64,000 nt of DNA, taken from assembly GCA_963717745.1 (NCBI GenBank), contig CAVQXJ010000002.1, positions 222,063 through 286,062 of the forward strand. Reading direction: 5' to 3'. The stretch comes from an uncultured Acidobacteriota bacterium. Lineage in GTDB: Bacteria > Acidobacteriota > Vicinamibacteria > Vicinamibacterales > 2-12-FULL-66-21. Each line of letters begins with the position of its first letter. The stretch's first letter is position 1. Positions 4,825 through 62,621 of the stretch are shown piece by piece. Both the position numbers and the translations under genes were made by a program. A model generated the notes under the pieces. The model ran no database searches. It was not told the origin of the DNA and saw only the letters and a list, made by a program, of their open reading frames with translations.

Positions 4825-7248
4825 ATGGCGAGGACCGAATATCTGACGGAGCTCGGGCAGGATGTCGGCTACGCGCTGCGCATGCTGCGCCGCGCACCCG
4901 GCTTCACGCTCGCCGCCTTGACTACTCTGGCGCTCGGCATCGGCGCCAATAGCGCCATCTTCAGCGTTGTCCACGGCGTCCTGCTCGCGCCGCTGCCGTA
5001 TCGTGATGCCGGCCGGTTGTATCGCATCACGACCCTCTATCCGGACGGGACGGCCTACTCCCTCTCGCCACCCGATTTCATGAGCGTGCGAGAGCAAACG
5101 CGAACCCTCGAGCAGGTGGAGGGATTCTCGGGCGGCGTCTACACGATGCTCGACGCCGGCGAGCCGCGCGAAGTGCGAGGGACGAGCGTCAGCGATCGTC
5201 TCTTTGGCCTCCTCGGTGTGGACGTCGCACTCGGCCGAGGTCTGTTGCCGGGCGACACTCAACCGGGGCACGAACGGGTGGCCGTGCTCGACCATGGGTT
5301 CTGGCAGCGGCAGTTCGGTGGCGATCGCAGCGTGCTCGGCCGCAGGATCAGGATCGCCGGCTCGCCGGTCGAGATCGTCGGCGTGCTGGCGCGCGGCACC
5401 CGGTTGCTCGACGCCGCGGATGTGTATACGCCGCTGGTCTACAACGACACGTTCAGCGCGGCGACCGCGAAGGGCAGACGCGGTGAGTTCCTGACGGTCA
5501 TCGGCCGTGCGAAGGCAGGCATCTCGCTCGCGCAGACTGATGACGACCTGCGGCGAATTGGCGGTCAGCTGCAGGTGGCGTTCCGCGAGACCAATCAGGC
5601 GTTGACGTTCAACGCCTTGCCGCTCACCGAGGTGATCGTGGGCGACGTGCGAACGCCGCTGCTCATTCTGCTCGGCGCCGTTGGCTTCGTGTTGCTGGTC
5701 GCCTGCGCGAATGTCGCCAACCTGCTCCTGGCGCGCGCCTCCGCACGTCAGGCGGAGCTGGCGGTCCGATCGGCGCTCGGTGCCGGCCGCGTACGGCTGC
5801 TCCGTCAGCTGCTGACCGAGGCTCTGGTCCTCGGGACCGCTGGTGCCGTGCTGGGCCTGGCGATGGCGTTGGTGGCGACGCGCGCGCTGGTGGCCGCGCA
5901 ACCGGCCGACATTCCGCGGTTGGAAGACGTCGGTGTGAACGGCATGGTCGTCATCGTGACGTTTGCGATCGCGATCGCGACCAGCGTCGGGTTCGGGATG
6001 TTGCCGGCGCTTCAGCTCACCGGCGCGCGCCTGCCGACCGCCTTGCGCGAGAGCACGCGCGGTGGCGCGAGTGTCGGCGGGCAGTGGATGCGATCGGCGC
6101 TGGTGGTCGCCGAGATGGCGCTTGCGGTCGTCCTGTTGATTGGTGCCGGGCTGTTGATCAGGAGCTTCGTCCAGTTGACTCGCGTCGACCCCGGGTTCCG
6201 CGCCGACCAGGCACTCTCGTTCCGAGTCGTGCTCCAGGGCGAACGATATGCCCAGGATGAGCCCACCCGCATTCGCGTCGCGGAGTTCGAGCAGCACTTG
6301 AGACGGTTACCCGGAGTCTCGACGGTCGGCGCCACCAGCCTGCTCCCGCTCAGCGGCCGCGGCGCGATGGTCGGCTTCGCCGTCGAGGGCGCGCCGCCCC
6401 CGCCGCCGAATGTCAATGCCGAAATCGCCTTGGCCAGTGCCACGCCCGACTACCTTCGGGCGATCGGAGCGACGGTCAGGCAGGGCCGCCACTTCAGCGC
6501 TCAGGACGACACCGCTGCGCCGCGCGTCGCGATCGTGAACGAGGCCGCGGTGCGACGATGGTTCGCTGGTCAGAATCCGATCGGCCGCCGGGTCATTACC
6601 AATGGTGCGCCGCGCGAGGTCGTGGGCGTCGTCGCCGACCTGCTGCAGCGAAGCGCCTCGGACCCGGTGGCGCCGATGGTCTTCGTGCCGTTCGCGCAGC
6701 GGACCATCAGGTCGATCAAGATGGCGGTGCGGACGACCGGCGATCCGGCGGCGCTGGCGCCGGCGATTCGCGCCGAGATCCGGGCGCTCGACGCCGATCT
6801 CGCGATTGCCGACATCACACCGATGACACAGCTGGTCCTCCGATCGCTCACCGCGCCGCGCTTCTACACCAGCCTGCTGGCGCTCTTTGCCGGCGTCGGC
6901 CTCGTGCTGGCGGCGATCGGCGTGTTTGGCGTGATGAGTTATGCCGTGGCGCAGCGGGTCCGCGAGATCAGCATTCGTCTCGCGCTCGGCGCACTGCCGC
7001 GCGAGGTGCTGCGGATGATCCTCGGCCACGCCCTCGGCCTGTCCGCGATCGGCGTCGTCGTGGGCCTCGCGGGAGCGATTGGACTCGGACGCGTCATTCA
7101 GGGCCAGCTGTTCGGCGTCGCACTCCTCGATCCCGTGACGTTGGTCGGCGTCCCGCTCGTGCTCGGCGCGAGCGCAGGGCTGGCGAGTTATCTCCCGGCA
7201 CGGCGCGCGATGAAGCTCGATCCAGCGAGCGCGCTGCGCGAAGGGTGA
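4825..7248 (+). CDS. ADOP-family duplicated FtsX/MacB-like ABC permease, paralog 1
   Basis: ORF 4693..7248 trimmed to ATG 4825 (MARTEYL). Has the N-terminal TM motif LALGIGANSAIFSVV, two FtsX-like 4-TM blocks, and a C-terminal DPASALREG. Confidence 0.9.
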   Translation: MARTEYLTELGQDVGYALRMLRRAPGFTLAALTTLALGIGANSAIFSVVHGVLLAPLPYRDAGRLYRITTLYPDGTAYSLSPPDFMSVREQTRTLEQVEGFSGGVYTMLDAGEPREVRGTSVSDRLFGLLGVDVALGRGLLPGDTQPGHERVAVLDHGFWQRQFGGDRSVLGRRIRIAGSPVEIVGVLARGTRLLDAADVYTPLVYNDTFSAATAKGRRGEFLTVIGRAKAGISLAQTDDDLRRIGGQLQVAFRETNQALTFNALPLTEVIVGDVRTPLLILLGAVGFVLLVACANVANLLLARASARQAELAVRSALGAGRVRLLRQLLTEALVLGTAGAVLGLAMALVATRALVAAQPADIPRLEDVGVNGMVVIVTFAIAIATSVGFGMLPALQLTGARLPTALRESTRGGASVGGQWMRSALVVAEMALAVVLLIGAGLLIRSFVQLTRVDPGFRADQALSFRVVLQGERYAQDEPTRIRVAEFEQHLRRLPGVSTVGATSLLPLSGRGAMVGFAVEGAPPPPPNVNAEIALASATPDYLRAIGATVRQGRHFSAQDDTAAPRVAIVNEAAVRRWFAGQNPIGRRVITNGAPREVVGVVADLLQRSASDPVAPMVFVPFAQRTIRSIKMAVRTTGDPAALAPAIRAEIRALDADLAIADITPMTQLVLRSLTAPRFYTSLLALFAGVGLVLAAIGVFGVMSYAVAQRVREISIRLALGALPREVLRMILGHALGLSAIGVVVGLAGAIGLGRVIQGQLFGVALLDPVTLVGVPLVLGASAGLASYLPARRAMKLDPASALREG

Positions 7249-14559: not shown

Positions 14560-14684
14560 GAAGGTACCGGATCTCAAAAACGGAGCAACGGAGATAACGA
14601 AGAGAACGGAAAAGAAAAAATATTTTGTCTTCTTCGTTTCCTCCGTTCTCTCCGTTGCTCCGTTTTTGAGATCCGTTCCCTCGA
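14560..14684. repeat. repeat family A copy 1: AT-richer ~125-bp imperfect palindrome
   Basis: 14569-14594 GGATCTCAAAAACGGAGCAACGGAGA is the exact reverse complement of 14649-14674. Shares its termini and inner AACGGAG/AACGAAG units with 26517-26656. Confidence 0.9.
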
Positions 14685-20064: not shown

Positions 20065-20460
20065 CCTAGCCTGGCGCCGTCGCTGACATCCACACCCACC
20101 CGAGGTCCATCGTAGGAGAAAGGCTGACGGCGATCCCGAAGGGGTCGGCTGGACGACGGCCGCCGGTGCGACCGGGCACGCGACATGCACTCGGCTTTGA
20201 ACAGAGATCCCCGCGTCAGACACTGCGGCAATGCCCACGATGATTTCGAGGTCAGCCGCAATAGGTGAGTGCGCCATAAGCGCACGAACCTGTGCGCACA
20301 CAGCCGTGCACGTGGGCGGTTTCGGCCGCATGGCCGCAGAGCTCCGGGGCCATCTGTCGAGAGGAATGACGACCGTTCGATGCGCTGGCGTGAATATCGA
20401 GAAAGCACCCCGCCGGCGCGGACGCGGTCGCGCACGAAACGCGCGGTGTGGCGAAGGGGC

Positions 20461-20991
20461 GTGTCCCGGCCTGGTGGCCTGAGGCGATCGATCATCGGTG
20501 TCGTCGTGCTGATGTGCGGCATCACCTCGACCGCTCAGGACGTCACCGGGCCTGCATTGAAGGCCGCTTTCGTGTATCAGTTGCCGAAGTTCACCGAATG
20601 GCCGCCCCCGGCCATCGCCCCCGACAGTCCGTTCTCACTGTGTGTCCTTGGCGAAGCCGTCGTGGGCGAGGCCTTCGAACGGATGGTCAAAGGGCGCGAC
20701 TACGGCGGACGTCGAATCGCCGTTTCCCGGCTCGCGCCCGGAGCGACGGCCCTGGGCTGCCACGCGTTGTATGTCGCGCAGGGCGCGACCGGCGTGCAGG
20801 CGGTCCTCGCGGAGGTCCGCGAGCGGCCGGTGCTGACGATCAGCGACATCGACGGCTTCACCAAGCTCGGCGGCATCACGCAGTTGTATTTCGATGGCGG
20901 TCAATTACGGCTGTTCATCGACACTGCGGCCGCGAACCGCGCCGGGCTCAAGATCAGCTCGCGCCTGCTGAAACTCTCGAAAGAGCCATGA
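20461..20991 (+). CDS. YfiR-family (DUF4154) periplasmic protein
   Basis: LKAAFVYQLPKFTEWP...FSLCVLGE...PVLTISDIDGFTKLGGITQLYFDGGQLRLFIDTAAANRAGLKISSRLLKLS. Start uncertain (20380 or 20461). Its stop overlaps the next start (ATGA). Confidence 0.8.
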   Translation: MSRPGGLRRSIIGVVVLMCGITSTAQDVTGPALKAAFVYQLPKFTEWPPPAIAPDSPFSLCVLGEAVVGEAFERMVKGRDYGGRRIAVSRLAPGATALGCHALYVAQGATGVQAVLAEVRERPVLTISDIDGFTKLGGITQLYFDGGQLRLFIDTAAANRAGLKISSRLLKLSKEP

Positions 20992-23028
20992 GTCATCGCT
21001 ACGCGTTCAAGTCACTCGCTCGACGTTGCGGCGCGGTAATGCTGCTGGCGCTGCTCGGCGCCGCGGCGCCCGCGTCCGCCCAATCCTCGCTGCCCGACCT
21101 CAACATCGAAGAGCTGATGAAGCTGGACGGCGGGCAGGTCTTCGGCGCGTCAGAGCGCCTCCAGCCCGTCACCGAGGCGCCGTCGTCTGTCTCATTCGTG
21201 ACCGCCGAAGACATCCGGCGGCACGGCTACCGCACGCTCGCCGAGATCCTGCGTGGGGTGCGAGGTCTCTATGTGACCGACGATCGCAACTTCAGCTTTA
21301 TCGGAGCCCGCGGCTTCGGCAAGCCTGGCGACTACAACAGCCGGATCCTGCTATTGATCAACGGCCACCGGGTCAACGACAACGTGTTCGGGCAGGCGGA
21401 GATCGGCGCCGAGTTCGGGCTGGATCCGTCCACGTTCGAGCGGGTCGAGATCATTCGTGGCCCCGCCTCCTCCCAGTATGGCGACAGCGCTTTCTTCGCT
21501 GTCGTCAACGTGATCACCAAGACCGGCGCGTCGATCGATGGGGGAGTGGTGACGGCCGAGGTCGGGATGCTCGGCACTCGCACGACCCGGGCGAGCGCCG
21601 GACGGCGATTCGCCAACGGCGTCGACCTGGCCGTCTCGGCCGCCTTGGGCCACAGCGACGGCAACGGGCGGCTGTATTTTCCGGAGTTCGATGCGCCGGA
21701 GACCAACCACGGCATCGCCCGGAACCTCGATGCCGAGAGCGTCCGTCAGTTCTATTCGCGGCTGTCGTTCAACAAGGTGACGGTGACCGCGGCCTATGGG
21801 ACCCGGACTCGCGAAGTGCCGACCGCATCGTTCGGCACGGTCTTCAACGAGCAGGCGTTCCCCGAGCAGACGACCGATCGTCATACGCTGGTCGATGCCG
21901 AATATTTGCGGACGATCCGCGGCACGAAGGCGGCGTTCCGGGTGTCCTTCGACCAGTTCTCGTACGACGGCGACTATCCGTTCGCCGGCGACGAGAGCCG
22001 GCCGCTCCTGCTGGGCCGCAACACCGTGGTCGGCTCGCGCTGGAGCGCCAGCGCACGCGGGACGCGGACGCTGCCGGGACGGCAGATCCTGACGGCCGGC
22101 GCCGAGTTCATCGACAACTTGCGCCAGGATCAGAGCAGCGTCTTCCTCGACTCCCCAGGCGGCGGCGTGCAGGACGTGCTGGTGGATGCTCCACGCTCGT
22201 CGCGTCAACACGCGCTCTATTTTCAAGACGAGATCCGCATCAAGGATTCGATCATCCTGAACGGCGGACTGCGCTACGACGGCTACGAGCAGTTCACCCG
22301 GGTCACGCCGCGCGCCGCGTTGATCTTTCTGCCCTCGGCCAACCAGTCCTTCAAGTACCTGTTCGGGCGCGCCTTTCGCGCGCCGAGCGCCTACGAGAGC
22401 ACCACGTTCTACTTCGGCGACTCGGTGGAGCAGCTCCAGCCCGAATCCATCGATACCCACGAGCTGGTGTGGGAACGCTACTTCAACGACGCACTGCGCA
22501 CGTCGGTGTCGACCTATTGGTACAAGGCGGAGCGTCTGCTCACACTGGTACCCGACGACACCACGTTTCTGGGGTCCCGGTACGTCAACGCGGGGGAAGT
22601 CCACGCCTCGGGGGTCGAGCTCGAAGGGCAGCTCCGCATCACCAGCAACGCGCAGGCGCACTTCAGCTACGCGCTGCAGCGCACCGAAGATCAGGACTCG
22701 CAGACCGAGCTTCCCAACTCCCCGCGTCACATGGCGAAAGGTCGGCTCAGCATTGCCGGTCCGTCGCGTGGATCTTCGATCGGTGTCGAAGGTCTGTTCA
22801 TGAGCAGCCGACAGACGCTCCTCGGTTCGCGCCTCCCACCCGCCGGCACGGTGCACCTGACGGTGATCCAGCCGCTCGGCCGGGCATGGGATCTGCTCGT
22901 TCACCGCCCGGAACCTGTTCGACGTGACCTATGCCGATCCGGCGTCGAGCGCCCACCGGCAGGATGCAATCACACGGAACGGCCGGACCGCACGCGTCGG
23001 TCTCACCTGGAAGTTCTGGAAACCCTAG
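20988..23028 (+). CDS. TonB-dependent outer-membrane receptor; reading frame broken about 45 codons before the end
   Basis: Signal peptide plus plug (EAPSSVSFVTAEDIRRHGYRTLAEILRGVRGLYV). The canonical C-terminus FTARNLFDVTYADP...GRTARVGLTWKFWKP* is encoded in the +1 frame from about 22900 to 23028. Confidence 0.85.
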
Positions 23029-23195
23029 TCCCCTGGAAGGGTGATGACTCGCCCAATTCCCGGGCGGGGCATCCCGGTTGGCGGCGTTGCTCATCGCTCA
23101 CATATGTCCAATATGCTCGCTCTTCGCGCCTTGCCAGCCGGGCGCCGCGCTCCGGGATTTAGGCAAGTCATCACCCTTCCATTGGACGGGACGCC
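23025..23195. repeat. repeat family F copy 1: TIR-bounded ~171-bp element with conserved ~100-nt core
   Basis: Core 23058-23157 matches 61461-61559 at about 84/100 by eye. Inner perfect 15-bp IR at 23035-23049 / 23166-23180. Outer arm 23179-23195 resembles the 61573-61592 TIR. Confidence 0.85.
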
Positions 23196-23990
23196 ATGAC
23201 AATCGCATCGCATCCCCCTCCGAATGCGTTGTCGCCGCTCGGACGGGCTGAGGATTCTCCACCGGCCGCACCGGCCTCGACTCATTTCATCGGCCTGGTC
23301 CTCGACGACGATCCGGACCTGCTGCAGGCCAGCTACGCGCTGCGCTATCAGGTGTATTGCCGCGAGCGGCACTTCCTGTCACCGGACGACTATCCCGATC
23401 AGCTCGAGACTGACGCGTTCGACCAGCATGCGATTCACGTGGGTGTGATCAACGCACAGAGAGAACTGGCGGCCACCGCGCGGCTCATACAGCTCACGCC
23501 GGCGGGGCTGCCGTCGTTCGATCACTGTACTTTCTATGCCGGGGTCAACGTCTTGCGCGACCTCGACCGCCGTGTGGTCGAAGTGTCGCGGCTGTCGGTC
23601 AGCCGGACCTATAACCGGCGTGCCGGCGACGATCATTTCAGTCTCGGGAGCGCCCCGCCGCGCACTGACGGCGGGGAGCGTCGCAGCGGCGGCGTGCTGG
23701 TGATGACGCTTTACAAGGCGCTGTATCAGGCGTCAAAACGCCGCGGGATTGCCAACTGGATGGCGGCGACCGAGCGTTCGCTGCAGCGGCTGGTCACCAG
23801 GAGCGGGTTCCCCTTCCGGCAGATCGGGCCCGAAACCGACTATTACGGTCCGGTGTCTCCCTACCTGTTGGATCTGTCGGAATTCGACGCCAACATCATG
23901 AGCGGCCGGTTTCCTCCATTGAACGATTTCATGGACGGCCTCGAACCGGAGTTCAGGCCGGATGGCGCCCCGGCCCCCGCCGCGGTATGA
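23196..23990 (+). CDS. GNAT-fold N-acyl amino acid synthase / LuxI-FeeM-like acyltransferase (family often annotated PEP-CTERM/exosortase-associated acyltransferase)
   Basis: LRYQVYCRERHFL...DAFDQHAIHVGV...ATARLI...VEVSRLSVSR...LYKALYQASKRRGIANWMAATERSLQRLV. Identified by family recollection, not a search. Confidence 0.7.
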   Translation: MTIASHPPPNALSPLGRAEDSPPAAPASTHFIGLVLDDDPDLLQASYALRYQVYCRERHFLSPDDYPDQLETDAFDQHAIHVGVINAQRELAATARLIQLTPAGLPSFDHCTFYAGVNVLRDLDRRVVEVSRLSVSRTYNRRAGDDHFSLGSAPPRTDGGERRSGGVLVMTLYKALYQASKRRGIANWMAATERSLQRLVTRSGFPFRQIGPETDYYGPVSPYLLDLSEFDANIMSGRFPPLNDFMDGLEPEFRPDGAPAPAAV

Positions 23991-25358: not shown

Positions 25359-25463
25359 CCCCGCCTGTCAAGGGACAAGGGACAAGGGAGAAAGACAAGG
25401 GAGAACTCCCGGATGTGGGTCGAGTAGTAGGAGCTTGTCCCTTGTCCCTTATCCCTTGTCGTT
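25359..25463. repeat. repeat family B copy 1 (hairpin form, GGGACAA/GGGAGAA heptamer arms)
   Basis: CCCCGCCTGTCAAGGGACAAGGGACAAGGGAGAAAGACAAGGGAGAAC, then a loop, then CTTGTCCCTTGTCCCTTATCCCTTGTCG. The right arm overlaps the last codons and stop of the O-methyltransferase gene. Confidence 0.85.
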
Positions 25464-26492: not shown

Positions 26493-26516
26493 TGTCGAGA
26501 CGTTCGGAGATGGTCG

Positions 26517-26656
26517 GAGGTACCGGATCTTAAAAACGGAGCACCGGAGCCAACGAAGAAAACGGAGACGTCACTAGTGTTTTGGTTTCCAAAAGAAATG
26601 TCTTTTCCGTTGCCTTCGTTGGCTCCGTTGCTCCGTTTTTGAGATCCGGTATCTCC
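26517..26656. repeat. repeat family A copy 2: ~140-bp imperfect palindrome
   Basis: The left arm GGAGGTACCGGATCTTAAAAACGGAGCACCGGAGCCAACGAAGAAAACGGAGACG pairs with 26601-26656 with few mismatches. Confidence 0.9.
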
Positions 26657-26690
26657 GCACTCGACCTCCGGTCCGACGTCTCGCCAGAGC

Positions 26691-42503: not shown

Positions 42504-42539
42504 ACCAACCTTCGCGTGACAGGAGAGCGAAGGTTGGTG
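42503..42539 (-). terminator. 13-bp-stem hairpin at the 3' end of ssrA
   Basis: CACCAACCTTCGC-N11-GCGAAGGTTGGTG. One arm includes the tmRNA ACCA end. No clear U-tract. Confidence 0.45.
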
Positions 42540-42888
42540 GAGGCGGCGGGATTCGCACCCGCGTCCGAAAATACTTCCCCGCAGGAATCTACGATGCGTA
42601 TCCGCTTCTATTTTGTCGCTCCCGACGTGTGGAAGCGGCGAAGAACCGTCGGGAGCCAACCCCAGAAAATCTTATCGCTGACGTCTGAGGCACCCGTCAG
42701 CAACCAGCCTACTAAAATGACATCCACTCCCGGCCCGCAGGCTGACCGGGGTAGACGCTCACAGGTTCTTAGGCTGCGAGTGCGAGCTGCGTGTCCGCAG
42801 TTAGTGTTGTTTCCATCTTTTGTCGAGGGTGATGGTCCTCGGCACGCATCCTGCGAAACCGTACCTCCGTCGAATCTAGGTCGCCCCC
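42535..42888 (-). ncRNA. ssrA: transfer-messenger RNA (tmRNA, SsrA)
   Basis: Minus strand starts GGGGGCGACCTAGATTCGACGG and ends GGACGCGGGTGCGAATCCCGCCGCCTCCACCA (tRNA-Ala-like acceptor/T-arm). Internal tag frame GCG GAC ACG CAG CTC GCA CTC GCA GCC TAA gives ADTQLALAA. Confidence 0.93.
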
Positions 42889-48937: not shown

Positions 48938-49272
48938 CGACGATACGACGATACGACGATACGACGACAACGACGTAATGCTGTGGCCACGAGGGAACGT
49001 CGGGGCATCTCCTAAGTGCCCTTTGCTATGACCAGCCAGCCACGTATCAACGGTTCTCCCCGTTGGCGGCGACGCCGGCCTTCGGCCGACGTTGACAGGA
49101 GTGAGGATCGGGAAGATCACAAGCAGTCGGGGTCTTTGAATGGACTGCTTGTGATTTTCCCGATCCTCACTCCTGTCACCGCGCGTAGCGCGGCGCCGCC
49201 AACGGGCAGCGTCCGTCGAAGTGACTCACAAGGGTTTTGTCTTACGTCGTGTCGTCGTGTCGTCGTCTCGTC
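48938..49272. repeat. ~335-bp nested imperfect palindrome (family E; inner hairpin = family G copy 2 at 49091-49180)
   Basis: Three tiers. (ACGACGAT)x3-4 at 48938-48980 pairs with CGTCGTGT-type units at 49242-49272. 49059-49077 pairs with 49189-49206. 49094-49128 pairs with 49143-49177 (34/35). Confidence 0.85.
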
Positions 49273-56329: not shown

Positions 56330-56446
56330 CCCCCCGCGTGTCAAGGGAGAAGGGAGAAGGCAAAAGGGAGAACTGACGGATTCGCGCCAAGAAATAGGAG
56401 ACTCCCCCTTCTCCCTTCTCCCTTTTCCCTTGTCGGCGTCAGGGGG
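56330..56446. repeat. repeat family B copy 5 (full hairpin, ~43-nt arms, ~30-nt loop)
   Basis: The left arm CCCCCGCGTGTCAAGGGAGAAGGGAGAAGGCAAAAGGGAGAAC pairs with the right arm CCCCCTTCTCCCTTCTCCCTTTTCCCTTGTCGGCGTCAGGGGG. Confidence 0.9.
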
Positions 56447-58280: not shown

Positions 58281-58394
58281 GCAATGCCAAAAATGCCAAA
58301 AATGCCAAGAGTGCCAAAACTGGGGGGCACTGCCGCGCGTTTTCCACCCCCGCACTTTTGGCATTCTTGGCCCTTTTGGCATTTTTGGCATTCC
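58281..58394. repeat. family C hairpin: ~40-nt arms made of ATGCCAAAA nonamer repeats
   Basis: The left arm GCAATGCCAAAAATGCCAAAAATGCCAAGAGTGCCAAAAC pairs with the right arm GCACTTTTGGCATTCTTGGCCCTTTTGGCATTTTTGGCATTCC. Occupies most of the 121-nt spacer between the two ABC genes. Confidence 0.9.
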
Positions 58395-58400
58395 TGAACA

Positions 58401-60221
58401 ATGTCGGTCCACGACGAAGAAATCCTCGGCAAGGCCTACGACTCGGTGCTGATGCGGCGGCTGCTGCGTTACCTGCTGCCGTACCGCGGCCAGGTGGCGC
58501 TGGCGCTGGTGGCCATCATCCTGGCGGCGGGGCTGCAGCTCGCGCAGCCGTACCTCGTGAAGATCGCGATCGATCGCCACATCCAGCCCGGGAACCTCGC
58601 CGGTCTGGACGGGATTGCCGTGGCGTTTCTCGCGATTCTGCTGGCGTCGTTCACGCTGGAGTTCCTCCAGACCTGGACGCTGCAGCTGACCGGGCAGCGC
58701 ATCATGTTCGACATGCGGCTCCAGATCTACCGGCACCTGCAGCGGCTCGACGTCCAGTTCTACGATCGCAATCCGGTCGGCCGCCTGATGACCCGGGTGA
58801 CGACCGACGTCGACGTGCTGAACGACATGTTCACCGCCGGCGTGGTCTCGATCTTCGGCGACCTGTTCATGCTCACCGGCATCATGATCGTGCTGGTGGT
58901 GATGGACTGGCGGCTGGCGCTGGTGGCGTTCTCGGTGCTGCCGCTGATCGCGATCGTGACGCAGTGGTTCCGCCGCAACGCCCGGGAATCGTACCGCGTG
59001 GTGCGGACGCTGATCGCCCGGATCAACGCCTTCCTGCAGGAGCACATCACCGGCATGTCCACGGTGCAGCTGTTCCGCCAGGAAGACCGGACCTTCGGGC
59101 GGTTCGACGAGATCAACCGCCGGCACCGCGACGCCAACGTGCAGTCGATCTTCTACTACGCGGTGTTCTACCCCGCGATCGAGGTGATCGGCGCGCTGGC
59201 GGCGGCGCTGATCATCTGGTTCGGCGGCGGATGGACGATGGCCGGGACGCTCACGCTCGGCTCGCTGGTGGCCTTCCTGCAATACTCGCAGCGGTTCTTC
59301 CGGCCGATCAGCGACATGTCCGAGAAGTTCAACGTGCTCCAGGCCGCCATGGCGTCCTCCGAGCGCATCTTCAAGCTGCTGGACACGCCGGTGAAGATCG
59401 CACCGGACCAGCGATTCGACCAGCCGCCGGCCCGCGCGCGGAGCGCGGCCCTGCGGTCAACAGGGGATCGGGCCACCAGCGGCTCGATCGTCTTCGAGGA
59501 CGTGTCGTTCGCCTACAACGAGACGGACTTCGTCCTCCGGCACGTCTCCTTCGAGGTGAAGCCCGGAGAGCGGGTCGGCATCGTCGGCGCGACCGGCGCC
59601 GGCAAATCGACGTTGATCAACCTGATCCTGCGCTTCTACGACACCACCAGCGGGCGCATTCTCGTCGACGGGGTCGATGTCCGCGACCTGGAGCTCCAGC
59701 CGCTGCGCGACAAGTTCAGCCTGGTGCTCCAGGACGTGCACCTGTTCTCCGGCACCATCGCGTCGAACATCAGGCTGGGCAGCACCGCCATCACCGACGC
59801 CCAGGTCCGCGCCGCGGCCAGCGCGGTCCACGCGGACCAGTTCATCGCGGCGCTGCCGCAAGGCTACGACCATCCGGTTGCCGAGCGGGGCGCCACGCTC
59901 TCGGTCGGCCAGAAACAGTTGCTGTCGTTCGCCCGGGCGCTTGCGTTCGACCCGGAGATCCTGGTCCTGGACGAGGCGACGTCCAGCGTCGACACCGAGA
60001 CCGAGCTGATCATCCGCGATGCCCTCAAGGTGCTGATGGCGGGCCGGACCACGCTGGCGATCGCCCACCGCCTGTCGACCATCCAGGACATGGACAAGAT
60101 CCTGGTGATGCACCATGGCGAGCTGCGTGAGGCCGGCACGCACCAGGAACTCCTGGCGCGGCGCGGCATCTATTACAAGCTGTATCAGTTGCAGTTCAAG
60201 GATCAGGAGTTGGGGGCCTGA
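58401..60221 (+). CDS. ABC exporter, fused permease/ATPase (MdlB-like), second of the pair
   Basis: GATGAGKST, LSVGQKQLLSFARA, ILVLDEATSSVD, TTLAIAHRLSTI. Confidence 0.9.
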   Translation: MSVHDEEILGKAYDSVLMRRLLRYLLPYRGQVALALVAIILAAGLQLAQPYLVKIAIDRHIQPGNLAGLDGIAVAFLAILLASFTLEFLQTWTLQLTGQRIMFDMRLQIYRHLQRLDVQFYDRNPVGRLMTRVTTDVDVLNDMFTAGVVSIFGDLFMLTGIMIVLVVMDWRLALVAFSVLPLIAIVTQWFRRNARESYRVVRTLIARINAFLQEHITGMSTVQLFRQEDRTFGRFDEINRRHRDANVQSIFYYAVFYPAIEVIGALAAALIIWFGGGWTMAGTLTLGSLVAFLQYSQRFFRPISDMSEKFNVLQAAMASSERIFKLLDTPVKIAPDQRFDQPPARARSAALRSTGDRATSGSIVFEDVSFAYNETDFVLRHVSFEVKPGERVGIVGATGAGKSTLINLILRFYDTTSGRILVDGVDVRDLELQPLRDKFSLVLQDVHLFSGTIASNIRLGSTAITDAQVRAAASAVHADQFIAALPQGYDHPVAERGATLSVGQKQLLSFARALAFDPEILVLDEATSSVDTETELIIRDALKVLMAGRTTLAIAHRLSTIQDMDKILVMHHGELREAGTHQELLARRGIYYKLYQLQFKDQELGA

Positions 60222-60279
60222 CGCTCGACAAGGGACAAGGGGTGCCTTCTCCCTTCTCCTTTGTCAGCGTCAGGCCCCC
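60212..60279. repeat. repeat family B copy 6 (hairpin variant), probable bidirectional terminator
   Basis: GGGGGCCTGACGCTCGACAAGGGACAAGGGG ... CCTTTGTCAGCGTCAGGCCCCC. The left stem contains the ABC gene's TGA. The right stem ends 3 nt before the convergent gene's stop. Confidence 0.85.
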
Positions 60280-60282
60280 AGC

Positions 60283-60828
60283 CTACTGTTTGGCGACCTC
60301 GACCGGGGGGACGGGCCATTCGGGTCGCGGGGGCAGGACGGCTTCCCGCTGGCGGAACAATCGATCGACCAGCCGGGGGGCGCTGTTCCGCGGATTCCAG
60401 CCCATCCGGAGGACGGTGGCCATCATCTGCCGCCGGCCGAGGACGAGCGCTTCGTCGCAGTTCCACACATAGATGTCCAGATGCCGGCCGTGGACCTTCG
60501 GACCGGTATCCATGACGGTGTAGATGCCGTTGTAGCGCTCGGGCAGCTTGTCGATCTGGACGACCGAGCCGACCGGGAGCAGATCGGGATCCGCGGCGGC
60601 AATCCCGGAGCGCACGTTGACCCCAGACGCGGTGGTGGTCCCGCGGCAGTATCCGGTTGCCGTGAACGGGAGGCGAACGCCTGGCGCGGGAGCGGCCTTC
60701 AGCTCCTGGTCCGATTGCCTGGCGGCAAATCGGGAGTCCATCATCGTGACCTCGTAGAGCGTCGCGAACGAAACGACCGCCACGAGAGTCACGAGGAACT
60801 TGCGCCCGATGGAGCGATTCAAAAACAT
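60283..60828 (-). CDS. 3D-domain (MltA-like double-psi beta-barrel) protein with N-terminal TM
   Basis: FTATGYCRGTTTASGVNVRSGIAAADPDLLPVGSVVQI...YTVMDTGPKVHGRHLDIYV. Confidence 0.8.
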   Translation of the reverse strand: MFLNRSIGRKFLVTLVAVVSFATLYEVTMMDSRFAARQSDQELKAAPAPGVRLPFTATGYCRGTTTASGVNVRSGIAAADPDLLPVGSVVQIDKLPERYNGIYTVMDTGPKVHGRHLDIYVWNCDEALVLGRRQMMATVLRMGWNPRNSAPRLVDRLFRQREAVLPPRPEWPVPPVEVAKQ

Positions 60829-60927
60829 AAGTTTCGGTTCCCCTGGGGCGCTGGGGGACTCCTAACTCTAAACGCCCAGGCCCCCCGGGTCAACCTGCAG
60901 CTCAGCAATACGAATTCGGGCAAGTAC

Positions 60928-61422
60928 TTACATTTCCGGATGTTGCGAGCGATGCAGTCGCTTCCGATGCGTCGTGATCATCACGAACGCGACGCGGTAG
61001 GCGAGGAGGGCGAGCAGTGTCGCCGCCACGGTCGATCCCAGCGTGAAGGCCCAGAGGACGGGTCTCAACGCTCCGGCGGCGGTCCGGAACTCCGTCCACG
61101 ACAGGTTCTTCATCGCGACCAGCAGCGCCTCGACCGCACCGGGAGGAACCGACGTGCGCAACAGGGAGGCGCCGAGCCAGGTCGCCAGCGAGTAGTACGG
61201 CACCAGGATCCAGGGCAGGTTGGAGTAGACCCCGAGCAGCACGGCGACCCGATTCAGGTTCAGTGCGAACGCGAGAATCAGGCCCAGAATCGTGTGAAAC
61301 CCGAGCAGGGGAGAGAAGCCCAGAAAGACGCCGAGCGCATAGGCGGCGGCGGTTCGCTGGGGCGTGTCGTGGGTGTGCAGCAGCTGCTCGAGCCACACCC
61401 GAACCCGAGGGAATCTCACCAC
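60928..61422 (-). CDS. DUF2062-family membrane protein
   Basis: HDTPQRTAAAYALGVFLGFSPLLGFHTILGLILAFALNLNRVAVLLGVYSNLPW. GTG start. Confidence 0.75.
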   Translation of the reverse strand: MVRFPRVRVWLEQLLHTHDTPQRTAAAYALGVFLGFSPLLGFHTILGLILAFALNLNRVAVLLGVYSNLPWILVPYYSLATWLGASLLRTSVPPGAVEALLVAMKNLSWTEFRTAAGALRPVLWAFTLGSTVAATLLALLAYRVAFVMITTHRKRLHRSQHPEM

Positions 61423-61427
61423 GCGGG

Positions 61428-61592
61428 CTAGTGTCCCGTCCCAGTGGTTCGCGACACAAGTCCCGGGCGGGGCATCCCGCCTCGCAGCGTTGCTCCTCGC
61501 TCAGATACTCCCGGTATCCTCGCTCGTCGCGCCTTGCGATCCGGGCGCCGCGCCCGGGACTCATGCCACGATCCACTGGGACGGGACACTAG
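61428..61592. repeat. repeat family F copy 2: perfect 20-bp TIRs + conserved ~99-nt core
   Basis: CTAGTGTCCCGTCCCAGTGG (61428-61447) is the exact reverse complement of 61573-61592. Core 61461-61559 is homologous to 23058-23157. Confidence 0.9.
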
Positions 61593-62621
61593 TCAGAAAT
61601 GAGTGAACCCTGACGGGAGCGGCTGGGAGACGCCATCGGTCTCGAGCAGAATAGCAGGCGCCGCCGTGAGCTCGCCGATTCGAGTGACGGGCACGCCGCG
61701 GGCCTGTTGGATCACGGTCCGGAGCCGTCCGCCGCGCCGTGGCGACACCGTGAACAACAGCTCGTAGTCGTCGCCGCCGGCCAGGGCGGAGGCGACCGGG
61801 TCTTCCCCCGCCGCCGCGAACCACCGCCGCGCGGCGTCCGGGATGGGAATCGCCTTCGCGTTGACGATCGCGCCGGTTCCACTGGCGCGGGCAATCGCGG
61901 TCACTGCGTCGGCGAGGCCGTCGCTGAGATCCATGCACGCCTTTGCACACCGGGTGCGTCCCAGAATCGCGCCGATCCGGGTTCTCGGCGTGGGTCGCCG
62001 GTGCCGGGCGGTCAACGCCGCGATGTCCTCCGGCTCGGCCTGTCCAGCTCCCCGGTGGCGCCGGAGCCACCCCAGGCCCGCCGCGGCGGCGCCGATGGAT
62101 CCGGTGACGTAAAGGGCGTCACCAGGCCGGCCGCCCGACCGGGTCAGCACCCGCCGCTCACGGACGTCGCCGACGGCGGTTACGTCGAGGATCAGCGGGC
62201 CTGGCGAACGGGCGATGTTGCCGCCGGCGAGCGTCACCCCCGCCTCCGCGGCCATTTCCGCGAATCCGTCCAGGAGGGCATCGACCTCGGCGACGGTCAA
62301 CCGCTCCGGCAGAATCAGGGACAGCAGTGCGAGGCGCGGCGTCCCGCCCATGGCCGCGACGTCGCTGACGTTCACCGCGAGCGCCTTGTAGCCGACGTCC
62401 GCGAACGAGGAGAATCCGAGGTCGAAGTGGATGCCCTCGACCAGCGCATCCGTGGTCAGGACCTGCAGCTCGCCTCGCGTCCCCGCCGCGACCGCGGCGT
62501 CGTCGCCGATCCCGGTGTGGAGGCCTTTGGAGACGGGGAAGCGCTCGCGGATGCGCTCGATGAGCGCCCGTTCGCCGATCGTGCCGATGGAAGGGGACTG
62601 GCTGCTACCGGGCGTATTCAA
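61593..62621 (-). CDS. thiL: thiamine-monophosphate kinase
   Basis: IGERALIERI...GIGDDAAV...LLTTDALVEGIHF...GGNIAR...ACMDLSDGLADA...GGDDYELLFTV. Confidence 0.9.
   Translation of the reverse strand: MNTPGSSQSPSIGTIGERALIERIRERFPVSKGLHTGIGDDAAVAAGTRGELQVLTTDALVEGIHFDLGFSSFADVGYKALAVNVSDVAAMGGTPRLALLSLILPERLTVAEVDALLDGFAEMAAEAGVTLAGGNIARSPGPLILDVTAVGDVRERRVLTRSGGRPGDALYVTGSIGAAAAGLGWLRRHRGAGQAEPEDIAALTARHRRPTPRTRIGAILGRTRCAKACMDLSDGLADAVTAIARASGTGAIVNAKAIPIPDAARRWFAAAGEDPVASALAGGDDYELLFTVSPRRGGRLRTVIQQARGVPVTRIGELTAAPAILLETDGVSQPLPSGFTHF

Follow-up and report, generated by a model that had tools for sequence, protein, structure and literature searches.

The window analysed here, the whole 64-kb stretch of contig CAVQXJ010000002.1 from an uncultured Acidobacteriota bacterium, holds two copies of a palindromic, non-coding element (Table 1). 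Copy 1 fills the space between a TonB-dependent receptor gene and the gene of a GNAT/FeeM-like N-acyltransferase, and copy 2 lies between two minus-strand genes, one for a ThiL-like thiamine-monophosphate kinase and one for a DUF2062 protein. A previous sequence-only reading took the element to be either a miniature inverted-repeat transposable element (MITE) or a structured RNA. The first of these is supported by dispersed copies, sharp CTAG ends, an empty site and IS630-like termini, and the second is not. We consider it very probable that both copies are non-autonomous transposons of about 165 bp, which were moved in trans by IS630-type transposases with duplication of the TA in CTAG.

Table 1. 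Positions in the window of the two copies, their parts and the adjoining genes
Feature	Position	Strand	Basis or remarks
TonB-dependent receptor gene, upstream of copy 1	20448..23028	+	Pfam Plug, TonB_dep_Rec_b-barrel; translations
Copy 1, MITE, hybrid (left arm B, right tip A-like)	23025..23195	+	nhmmer 177 bits; aligned with 58 other copies; RNA fold
Copy 1, left terminal repeat, B type (CTAGTCCCCTGGAAGGGTGATGACTCG)	23025..23051	+	same terminus in L081, L001, L109, L049, L018 and others
Copy 1, conserved core: GC-rich bulged stem, pyrimidine-rich internal loops, apical hairpin 23101-23115	23058..23157	+	
Copy 1, right arm: inner part AGTCATCACCCTTCC of B type, tip ATTGGACGGGACGCC of A type without CTAG	23164..23195	+	
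GNAT/FeeM-like N-acyltransferase gene, downstream of copy 1	23196..23990	+	Pfam Acetyltransf_5, FeeM
DUF2062 gene, by copy 2; GTG start 5 nt from left CTAG	60928..61422	-	Pfam DUF2062
Copy 2, MITE of subfamily A, intact in sequence, CTAG on both sides	61428..61592	+	missing at orthologous site in relatives
Copy 2, left terminal inverted repeat CTAGTGTCCCGTCCCAGTGG	61428..61447	+	perfect 20-bp match to reverse complement of 61573-61592
Copy 2, conserved core, apical hairpin GATACTCCCGGTATC at 61504-61518	61461..61559	+	
Copy 2, right terminal inverted repeat CCACTGGGACGGGACACTAG	61573..61592	+	adjoins thiL TGA stop
ThiL-like thiamine-monophosphate kinase gene, by copy 2	61593..62621	-	Pfam AIRS, AIRS_C; homologues so named

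The two copies and their neighbouring genes

The two copies lie on the same strand, and alignment bore out the near-identity of their cores that had been noticed by eye. The window has exactly two occurrences of the core 19-mer TCCCGGGCGGGGCATCCCG, where 0.22 are expected by chance, and a profile built from 64 members of the family described below matched only these two copies there. Each copy is a single long imperfect palindrome; the arms of copy 1 pair over 55 nt (76% complementary) and those of copy 2 over 46 nt (87% complementary). The perfect 15-bp inverted repeat reported for copy 1, GGAAGGGTGATGACT / AGTCATCACCCTTCC, is present and belongs to the 55-nt arm pair, in which this inner part of the right arm is fully complementary to the left arm. 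In copy 2 the terminal inverted repeat (TIR), CTAGTGTCCCGTCCCAGTGG / CCACTGGGACGGGACACTAG, is perfect over 20 bp, with CTAG at the start and the end of the element. The computed RNA folds have energies of -103.1 kcal/mol for copy 1 (z -9.5) and -108.9 kcal/mol for copy 2 (z -11.0), and copy 2 as single-stranded DNA has -61.4 kcal/mol (z -10). As stated before, no open reading frame (ORF) is common to both copies, and the ORFs that cross them are spurious or run-through. A putative minus-strand core peptide (MARRDERAYWAY...) was dropped after a check by eye only, since the variation tracks stems rather than codon positions and the copies lie between genes.

The two codons that had been proposed as the borders of copy 1 were both upheld. 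TAG at 23026-23028, which sits inside the left CTAG of copy 1, is the true stop of the TonB-dependent receptor, whose typical C-terminus ...ARVGLTWKFWKP* is read in that frame, and an ATG start is present at 23196. A frameshift near 22885-22895 (...LGRAWDL -> ...SFTARNLFDVTYADP...) parts this C-terminal frame from the long ORF, reflecting either a pseudogene or a sequencing indel. At copy 2, thiL on the minus strand ends in a TGA (61593-61595) immediately next to the right CTAG. No exact record exists of the protein of the DUF2062 gene or of that of the acyltransferase gene. The earlier reading of the other flank as a plus-strand gene has to be given up: the 438-aa ORF at 60115-61431, whose end appears to fall inside the element, has no family match, overlaps the thiL and DUF2062 genes, which are the real neighbours, and is spurious. 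Repeats of this kind create such ORFs and also break short-read assemblies, and annotators gain from the family a model for masking them.

A family of Vicinamibacteria and its CTAG target

The family extends well beyond the window. One pass over a collection of species-representative genomes (one genome per species) with a core 18-mer recovered at least 112 stretches (loci, cited by L numbers), 841 kb in all. A two-copy nhmmer profile applied to these loci yielded at least about 67 full-length copies and many fragments, and 117 non-overlapping matches lie within the 841 kb. This family size rules out a chance local duplication of the two copies. The family is carried by more than 50 assemblies of Vicinamibacterales/Acidobacteriota, with at most six loci per assembly among the matches listed, and the metagenome-assembled genomes (MAGs) that host it are nearly all labelled Vicinamibacterales, Vicinamibacteria, Luteitalea or Acidobacteriota. 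Matches in Actinobacteria and other phyla were chance hits of the bare 18-mer. Full copies were also observed on contigs labelled Bifidobacteriaceae (co-assembly bins; L062, L072 and L108) and Longimicrobiales (L015), which are more likely to be mis-binned Vicinamibacteria than true hosts. No DNA match to the element was found among the PLSDB plasmids.

In an alignment with 40-nt flanks, the copies are 165-166 bp long (n = 64), and homology begins and ends abruptly with unrelated sequence on either side; CTAG stands at the left end of 43 of the 64 copies and at the right end of 42. No pair among 68 copies has homologous flanks on both sides, a single one-sided similarity being the only one seen, and none of the 68 insertions is orthologous between species, which is weakly informative because of the sparse sampling. 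The copies constitute a MITE family of the class Vicinamibacteria and are an ordinary kind of element. The family appears to be undescribed so far: full-text searches of the literature on MITEs in Acidobacteria and on IS1182/CTAG found no description of it, and in a survey of prokaryotic MITEs the Acidobacteriae appear only regarding phage-borne MITEs. Vicinamibacteria are a major, poorly studied soil lineage, and the family accounts for a recurrent 'gap filler' of about 165 bp at gene ends.

The outer 30 nt or so of the arms vary strongly among copies, with the left and the right arm changing jointly (for example GTGTCCCGTCCCAGTGG / CCACTGGGACGGGACAC, GTCCCCTGGAAGCGTGATGACTCA / ...AGTCATCACGCTTCCAGGGGAC and GTGTCCCGGCCGCGTGATTCG / CGAATCACGCGGCCGGGACAC). 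The self-complementary spacers that had been thought specific to each copy are transposon ends specific to subfamilies, two of which, A and B, are represented in the window. The idea that the two copies share a TIR holds for the right arm of copy 1, the tip of which is of the A type, and fails for its left arm, where the supposedly eroded CTAGTCCCCTGGAAG... is the intact terminus of the second subfamily and recurs in some 20 further genomes. It is the right end of copy 1 that is unusual. The left arm is of the intact 'GTCCCCTGGAAG' type, and the right arm follows the same type only up to TTCCA, past which it reads ATTGG-ACGGGACGCC, the tip of the other subfamily, in place of ACTGGGACGGGACAC, and the terminal CTAG is lost. 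Judged from these arms, copy 1 is a hybrid of two subfamilies that is probably immobile through the loss of its right CTAG, and copy 2 is a recent and intact element.

That copy 2 was inserted follows from the empty site in close relatives. Relatives' contigs with ThiL sequences 98, 93 and 85% identical to that of the window have their genes in the order of the window (RNase Y, thiL, DUF2062 and a 3D-domain gene), and the spacing between the thiL and DUF2062 genes is 9-12 nt in these relatives (L130/L131, L132 and L133). The junction is TGA-TCCGCCCGC-ATG in the relatives and TGA-CTAG..165 nt..CTAG-CCCGC GTG in the window. A 4-nt site has thus become 165 nt, and the net gain of 161 nt agrees with the element plus a duplicated target, for which both 2 bp and 4 bp fit.

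The window has 15 CTAG sites, where dinucleotide-preserving shuffles predict 64.8 +/- 7.4, a four-fold under-representation, and three of the 15 are ends of the element. The end variants TTAG...CTAA, GTAG...CTAG and CTAG...CTAC are mostly mirror-symmetric changes or changes of the outermost base, which fit N-TA-[G...C]-TA-N. Neighbouring genes were called with our own codon-usage gene caller, which recovers the Pfam-supported genes of the window; by these calls, the TAG stop of a neighbouring gene lies inside a terminal CTAG in 30 of 64 copies, and on both sides in one copy. The free CTAG sites in the 841 kb comprise 58 at stop codons, 116 that are intergenic and 72 that are intragenic. The copies are oriented at random with respect to adjacent genes (14 codirectional, 17 antiparallel, 15 convergent and 8 divergent). 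The sequence-only reading had suggested that gene junctions as such are targeted; the real target is CTAG, which is rare and often holds a TAG stop. Elements with this target can land exactly on a TAG stop codon and leave the gene unharmed. Chaining at one CTAG was also found: an A-type copy abuts a C-type copy (L074 1000-1003; for subfamily C, see below), an IS5-family insertion sequence (IS) lies within the right CTAG of a copy (L091 6311-6314), and an IS630-family IS abuts a truncated copy (L036 1462-1465).

In the mechanism that we propose, a DDE transposase of the IS630/Tc1-mariner type, with its gene at another place in the genome, would bind both ends of the element, a long imperfect palindrome with TIRs of about 25-30 bp, a GC-rich stem inside them and a near-invariant central module of about 70-90 nt, and would excise it. 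The transposase would then paste the element into the TA within a preferred CTAG and duplicate the TA, giving C-TA-[G...C]-TA-G. This duplication would restore the TAG stop, and the surviving insertions would sit at gene ends and fill short gaps; the exact filling of gaps would be due to the CTAG target, the stop restored by duplication and the loss of intragenic insertions. In the simplest reading, each arm subfamily would mirror the ends of a different IS630 relative, so that much of the 'covariation' of the outer arms would be explained without RNA.

Insertion sequences with similar ends

IS630-family elements move by cut-and-paste into TA, which is duplicated (PMC2170065), and the same paper cites Tenzen & Ohtsubo 1991, the title of which names preferential transposition to TA in 5'-CTAG-3'. 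Two IS630-family ISs were recovered, one of 1188 bp on metagenome contig L124 and one of about 1.1 kb in Vicinamibacterales MAG L036, whose transposases score 268.5 and 248.8 bits, respectively, with NCBIfam transpos_IS630 (cutoff 100). The IS630-type ends are CTAGTGCCCCGGAACAGAAGT in L124, CTAGTGGCCTGTACTC in L036 and CTAGTGGCTTGTAC in further relatives. The MITE tips have the consensus CTAGTGnCCyG, being CTAGTGTCCCG or CTAGTGTCCTG in A and CTAGTCCCCTG in B, and these tips agree with the IS630-type tips at 10 of 11 positions and with the IS1182-type tip (CTAGCAGCCCG) at 8 of 11. We also aligned the IS ends to all 128 MITE arms, with shuffled controls. The right end of the L124 IS matched the L056 arms at 24 of 30 positions without gaps (score 16; mean of the best shuffled scores 7.7, maximum 11.5), and its left end matched L014 at 18 of 21. 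The IS1182/IS5 ends matched the A and B arms no better than the shuffled controls did.

IS870 of Agrobacterium is a CTAG-targeting member of the IS630 family, the target of which provides the stop codon of the transposase. Similarly, the IS630-like ISs of L036 (362-1465) and L135-L141 end their transposase ORFs in the terminal TAG, as does the IS of L074 described below. The family studied here would share with IS630 of Shigella and IS870 the insertion into the TA of 5'-CTAG-3'; those are autonomous elements of about 1.1-1.2 kb, of which the 165-bp non-coding element is a derivative or an associate.

A sister subfamily, C, of about 185 bp has only the central 70-90 nt or so in common with the other copies (nhmmer E about 1e-17 to 1e-6). 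Its arms are CTAGCAGCCCGTGGTGAAAGT... / ...ACTTTCACCACGGGCTGCTAG, and its terminal 21-24 nt coincide with those of a 1476-bp IS1182/IS5-like IS, which occurs at two distant sites (L071 and L074) of chromosome OZ252227.1. The 468-aa transposase of this IS has the Pfam domains DUF772 and DDE_Tnp_1, and its best NCBIfam match is IS1182, under the cutoff. The ORF (L074 1561-3036) continues across the inverted repeat, with the TAG of the terminal CTAG as its stop at the very end of the element, and the ending ...TGC* is shared by most of the 120 proteins closest to it. Inverted repeats are the reported target of IS1272, a member of the IS1182 family (PMC5678879). At least 8000 transposase homologues were present in the protein collection for each of the IS1182-like (L074) and IS630-like (L036) queries, and the family is tied to very abundant ISs of the IS630 type and the IS1182/IS5 type.

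These ISs raise the question of whether a DDE transposase of the IS5/IS1182 type moves the element and duplicates all 4 bp of CTAG, in which case the element would still be a MITE. Two CTAG-flanked ISs of this kind reside in the same genomes as the family (the 1476-bp IS in L074/L071 and the IS5-family IS in L091), that of L091 sits in the CTAG of a family copy, and the termini of subfamily C match the L074 IS as described above; a 48%-identical Sphingobium relative also ends CTAACAG.. / ..GCTGCTAG, and the 161-nt net gain suits a 4-bp duplication equally. We nevertheless regard such a mobiliser as improbable, for the A and B tips are nearer to the IS630 type, the whole ends of the IS1182/IS5-type ISs score as shuffles on the very arms on which IS630 ends reach 24 of 30, and the variant TTAG...CTAA is mirror-symmetric, has no direct repeat and suits a TA duplication in NTAN.

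Two attempts to find a partner IS by its ends were abandoned. A partner whose ORF reads through A- or B-type ends (predicted C-termini ..TGTGH* and ..LPGD*) was found in none of the 120 close homologues and 150 representatives of the IS1182-like group. A metagenome scan for A or B tips followed by a hairpin of the 5' untranslated region, GGGATCGACA, which is common to IS1182-like and IS5-like ISs, gave 17 stretches, nearly all of them chance hits; the L124 stretch turned out to hold an IS630-family IS, one end of which matches. As a separate observation, this leader hairpin by the inverted repeat is GGGATCGACA(C)GATCGATCCC followed by G(G)CGTACTAC at L074 2975-3000 and L091 7565-7585, and the transposases that share it are only about 26% identical.

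Paired arms and the conserved centre

The minimum-free-energy structure of copy 2 was mapped on 59 sequences and compared with 500 shuffles and slid controls. Paired cells amounted to 90.2% (shuffled mean 78.8%, slid controls 34-45%), 37 of 63 pairs were altered on both sides (25.5 and 15-25), 372 cells were altered on both sides (125 and 50-97), and the covariation score was 0.271 (0.087 and at most 0.07); none of the 500 shuffles reached the observed values. The outer helix is paired at 91% family-wide, the TIR of copy 1 being partial with a right tip from another subfamily. The apical hairpin co-varies as well (CATAT..ATATG, AATAT..ATATT, CTTAT..ATAAG, CAAAT..ATTTG and GATAC..GTATC). The stem covariation that had been proposed as a check for a structured RNA is thus strong, but it fits both a MITE and an RNA, because the two arms of a transposon must match one transposase. 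Homogenisation of the palindrome, like paired transposon ends, also predicts compensatory changes.

A structured non-coding RNA gene or cis-regulatory RNA in several copies would share the very stable fold, the strong covariation and the conservation of the core across many species. We think it very improbable all the same, as the element occurs equally in both orientations relative to genes, has unrelated flanks, is present or absent among close relatives, and ends in CTAG-bounded inverted repeats shared with ISs. Neither a sigma-70-like promoter nor an intrinsic terminator was found in either copy. Membership in a known Rfam family, which had been held out as a possibility, was not borne out: at gathering scores the only match in the window was the tmRNA gene at 42535-42888 (minus strand; RF00023, 163 bits), and when E was relaxed to 10 the element drew hits, all below threshold, from plant microRNA-precursor models alone, which are generic long hairpins.

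Near-invariance is seen in the GC-rich stem and, in the centre, in the blocks GCGTTGCTC, TCGCGCCTTGC and CCGGGCGCCGCGC, although this invariance is in part an ascertainment effect, the scan pattern having fixed the 5' half of the GC stem. In the outer stem (columns 1-34 / 133-166, 64 copies), A:C mismatches number 67 cells in 22 columns and G:T mismatches 23 cells in 13 columns, counts that are not corrected for shared ancestry; an A:C mismatch is a G:T wobble on the complementary strand. Two derivatives of about 94 bp (L100 4973-5066 and L062 163-256) keep both arms and lack the central module; the centre is therefore not needed for persistence. A palindrome of about 40 nt, GC-rich, CCACCCCACCGCGCA....GCGCGGCGGGG.CCCCGG, was noticed inside three MITE copies, at the same position in L043 (about 7037-7077) and L051 (about 2300-2340) and at a different one in L096 (about 1090-1130), and may be a separate tiny mobile hairpin.

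The conserved centre suggests that the element might be mobile and that its central module and hairpin might at the same time be functional, either as an aid to transposition (cruciform or bending) or through an effect of the RNA hairpin at the level of the host. Such a role is compatible with a MITE and competes only with the version in which the element is purely selfish and its interior irrelevant. Hairpins of ERIC and Correia elements in transcripts are reported to alter the stability of mRNA or the read-through of adjacent genes. The double-sided changes mentioned above include inner and apical stems beyond the transposase-binding ends, the same 70-90 nt or so are found with the termini of two unrelated transposase families, the sole A+T-rich stretch stands at the apex, the fold energies are extreme both as RNA and as DNA (z about -10), and many copies, copy 2 included, lie within likely operons. 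On balance, a functional centre seems possible but rather unlikely to us, since the orientation is unbiased relative to transcription, neither copy has a promoter-like or intrinsic-terminator-like site, none of the 68 copies shows orthologous retention and centre-less variants persist; gene conversion from arm to arm in palindromes can imitate compensatory change, and the invariance comes partly from the scan pattern.

A more specific version, which we hold to be somewhat more doubtful still, would make the centre GCATCCCGCC...GCGTTGCTC.TCGCTCA-[AT-rich apical hairpin]-CTCGCTC.TCGCGCCTTGC...GGCGGGCGCC a functional cargo that has been furnished with either IS630 or IS1182/IS5 ends. Its stems would be kept paired by compensatory change, and the two transposase families would share the CTAG target. 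Possible functions of such a cargo include a cruciform or bending device for the synapsis of ends 165 bp apart and an RNA or single-stranded DNA structure that affects the neighbours, and the excess of A:C over G:T mismatches (67 versus 23) would reflect the folding of one strand. If the central module has a role, the element offers a compact model for the synapsis of short transposon ends or for the co-option of mobile hairpins; otherwise it is an ordinary selfish repeat.

That excess also hints at a strand-specific constraint on folding as expected of a REP/BIME-type repeat spread by RAYT (IS200/IS605-like) or of another mechanism that recognises hairpins in single-stranded DNA, and the whole element is indeed a hairpin that is stable as single-stranded DNA too. 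Like REP/BIME and REPIN with RAYT (PMC3733652), the family consists of extragenic palindromic repeats of high copy number. REPs, however, measure 20-40 bp, are tagged at a single end by GTAG or CGTC and lack a terminal duplication (PMC3733652), in contrast to a symmetric element of 165 bp with CTAG at both ends. The A:C excess may reflect differences between the left and right ends of the parent ISs, and the symmetric ends and the arithmetic of the filled site fit a target duplication. Elements of the IS200/IS605 type are not known to make one. No RAYT-like gene turned up, although no search aimed at RAYT was made. Spread of this kind is the least probable of the explanations that we considered.

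Mobilisation in trans by an IS630-type transposase is the explanation that we prefer, and several observations weigh against it. No IS with the exact termini of the copies in the window was found, the window itself contains no IS630 gene, and the IS630 link consists of the tip of 10-11 nt for most copies, with longer matches for a few. Comparison of the element interior with the interiors of five candidate ISs gave only chance words of 10-11 nt; the unrelated interior rules out a simple deletion derivative of an IS. The empty sites of the relatives read TCCG or TCGG and not CTAG, so that the CTAG target before insertion would have existed in the lineage of the window, and the palindromic nature of CTAG makes 2-bp and 4-bp duplications indistinguishable. 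Finally, conservation is higher in the centre than at the ends, the opposite of the usual MITE pattern, and inner stems that are not transposase sites co-vary too, which mobilisation in trans leaves unexplained.

Some of these features have parallels. Stowaway of plants is a MITE mobilised by IS630/Tc1-mariner elements, and RUP of pneumococci is attributed to IS630-Spn1. The present family resembles them in being small, non-coding and able to fold back, in the TA duplication that we propose and in its dispersed, mostly intergenic copies, and in Stowaway and RUP, too, the terminal 10 bp or so alone are shared with the autonomous element and the interior is unrelated. MITEs often have very limited similarity to their autonomous partners (PMC3660474). 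The family differs from Stowaway and RUP in its host, Vicinamibacteria, in the lack of sequence similarity to them, in its strict preference for CTAG with about half of the copies at TAG stops, in a centre more conserved than the ends, and in having a sister subfamily with the ends of a different transposase family. The Correia elements of Neisseria and ERIC/IRU of Enterobacteria are imperfect palindromes of 100-170 bp that are intergenic, often co-transcribed and encode no protein, with a TA duplication in Correia. Size of the palindrome, intergenic dispersal, the absence of an encoded protein and, for Correia, the TA duplication that we propose are points of similarity. Correia and ERIC/IRU occur in a different phylum, have no sequence relationship to the present family and differ from it in that a candidate transposase family can be named here; no IHF-site or promoter-like features such as theirs were found in it.

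The window contains other palindromic repeats as well. Two copies of another repeat of about 120-145 nt lie at 14562-14681 and 26515-26657, with arms AGGTACCGGATCT.AAAAACGGAGCA.CGGAG...; they are 85-86% self-complementary and far more A+T-rich than the genome, and a CTAG (26574-26577) stands at the centre of the second. Intergenic hairpins at 25369-25458 and 56342-56432 have arms of tandem CAAGGGA/GAAGGGA heptamer-like units, and one at 58283-58392 has arms of tandem AATGCCAAA units; these tandem-unit hairpins appear to form another class of intergenic palindromes. Strong hairpins were also found at 981-1057 and 49090-49181, one with a perfect 32-bp stem and a 13-nt loop and the other with a 39-bp stem that is 95% complementary.

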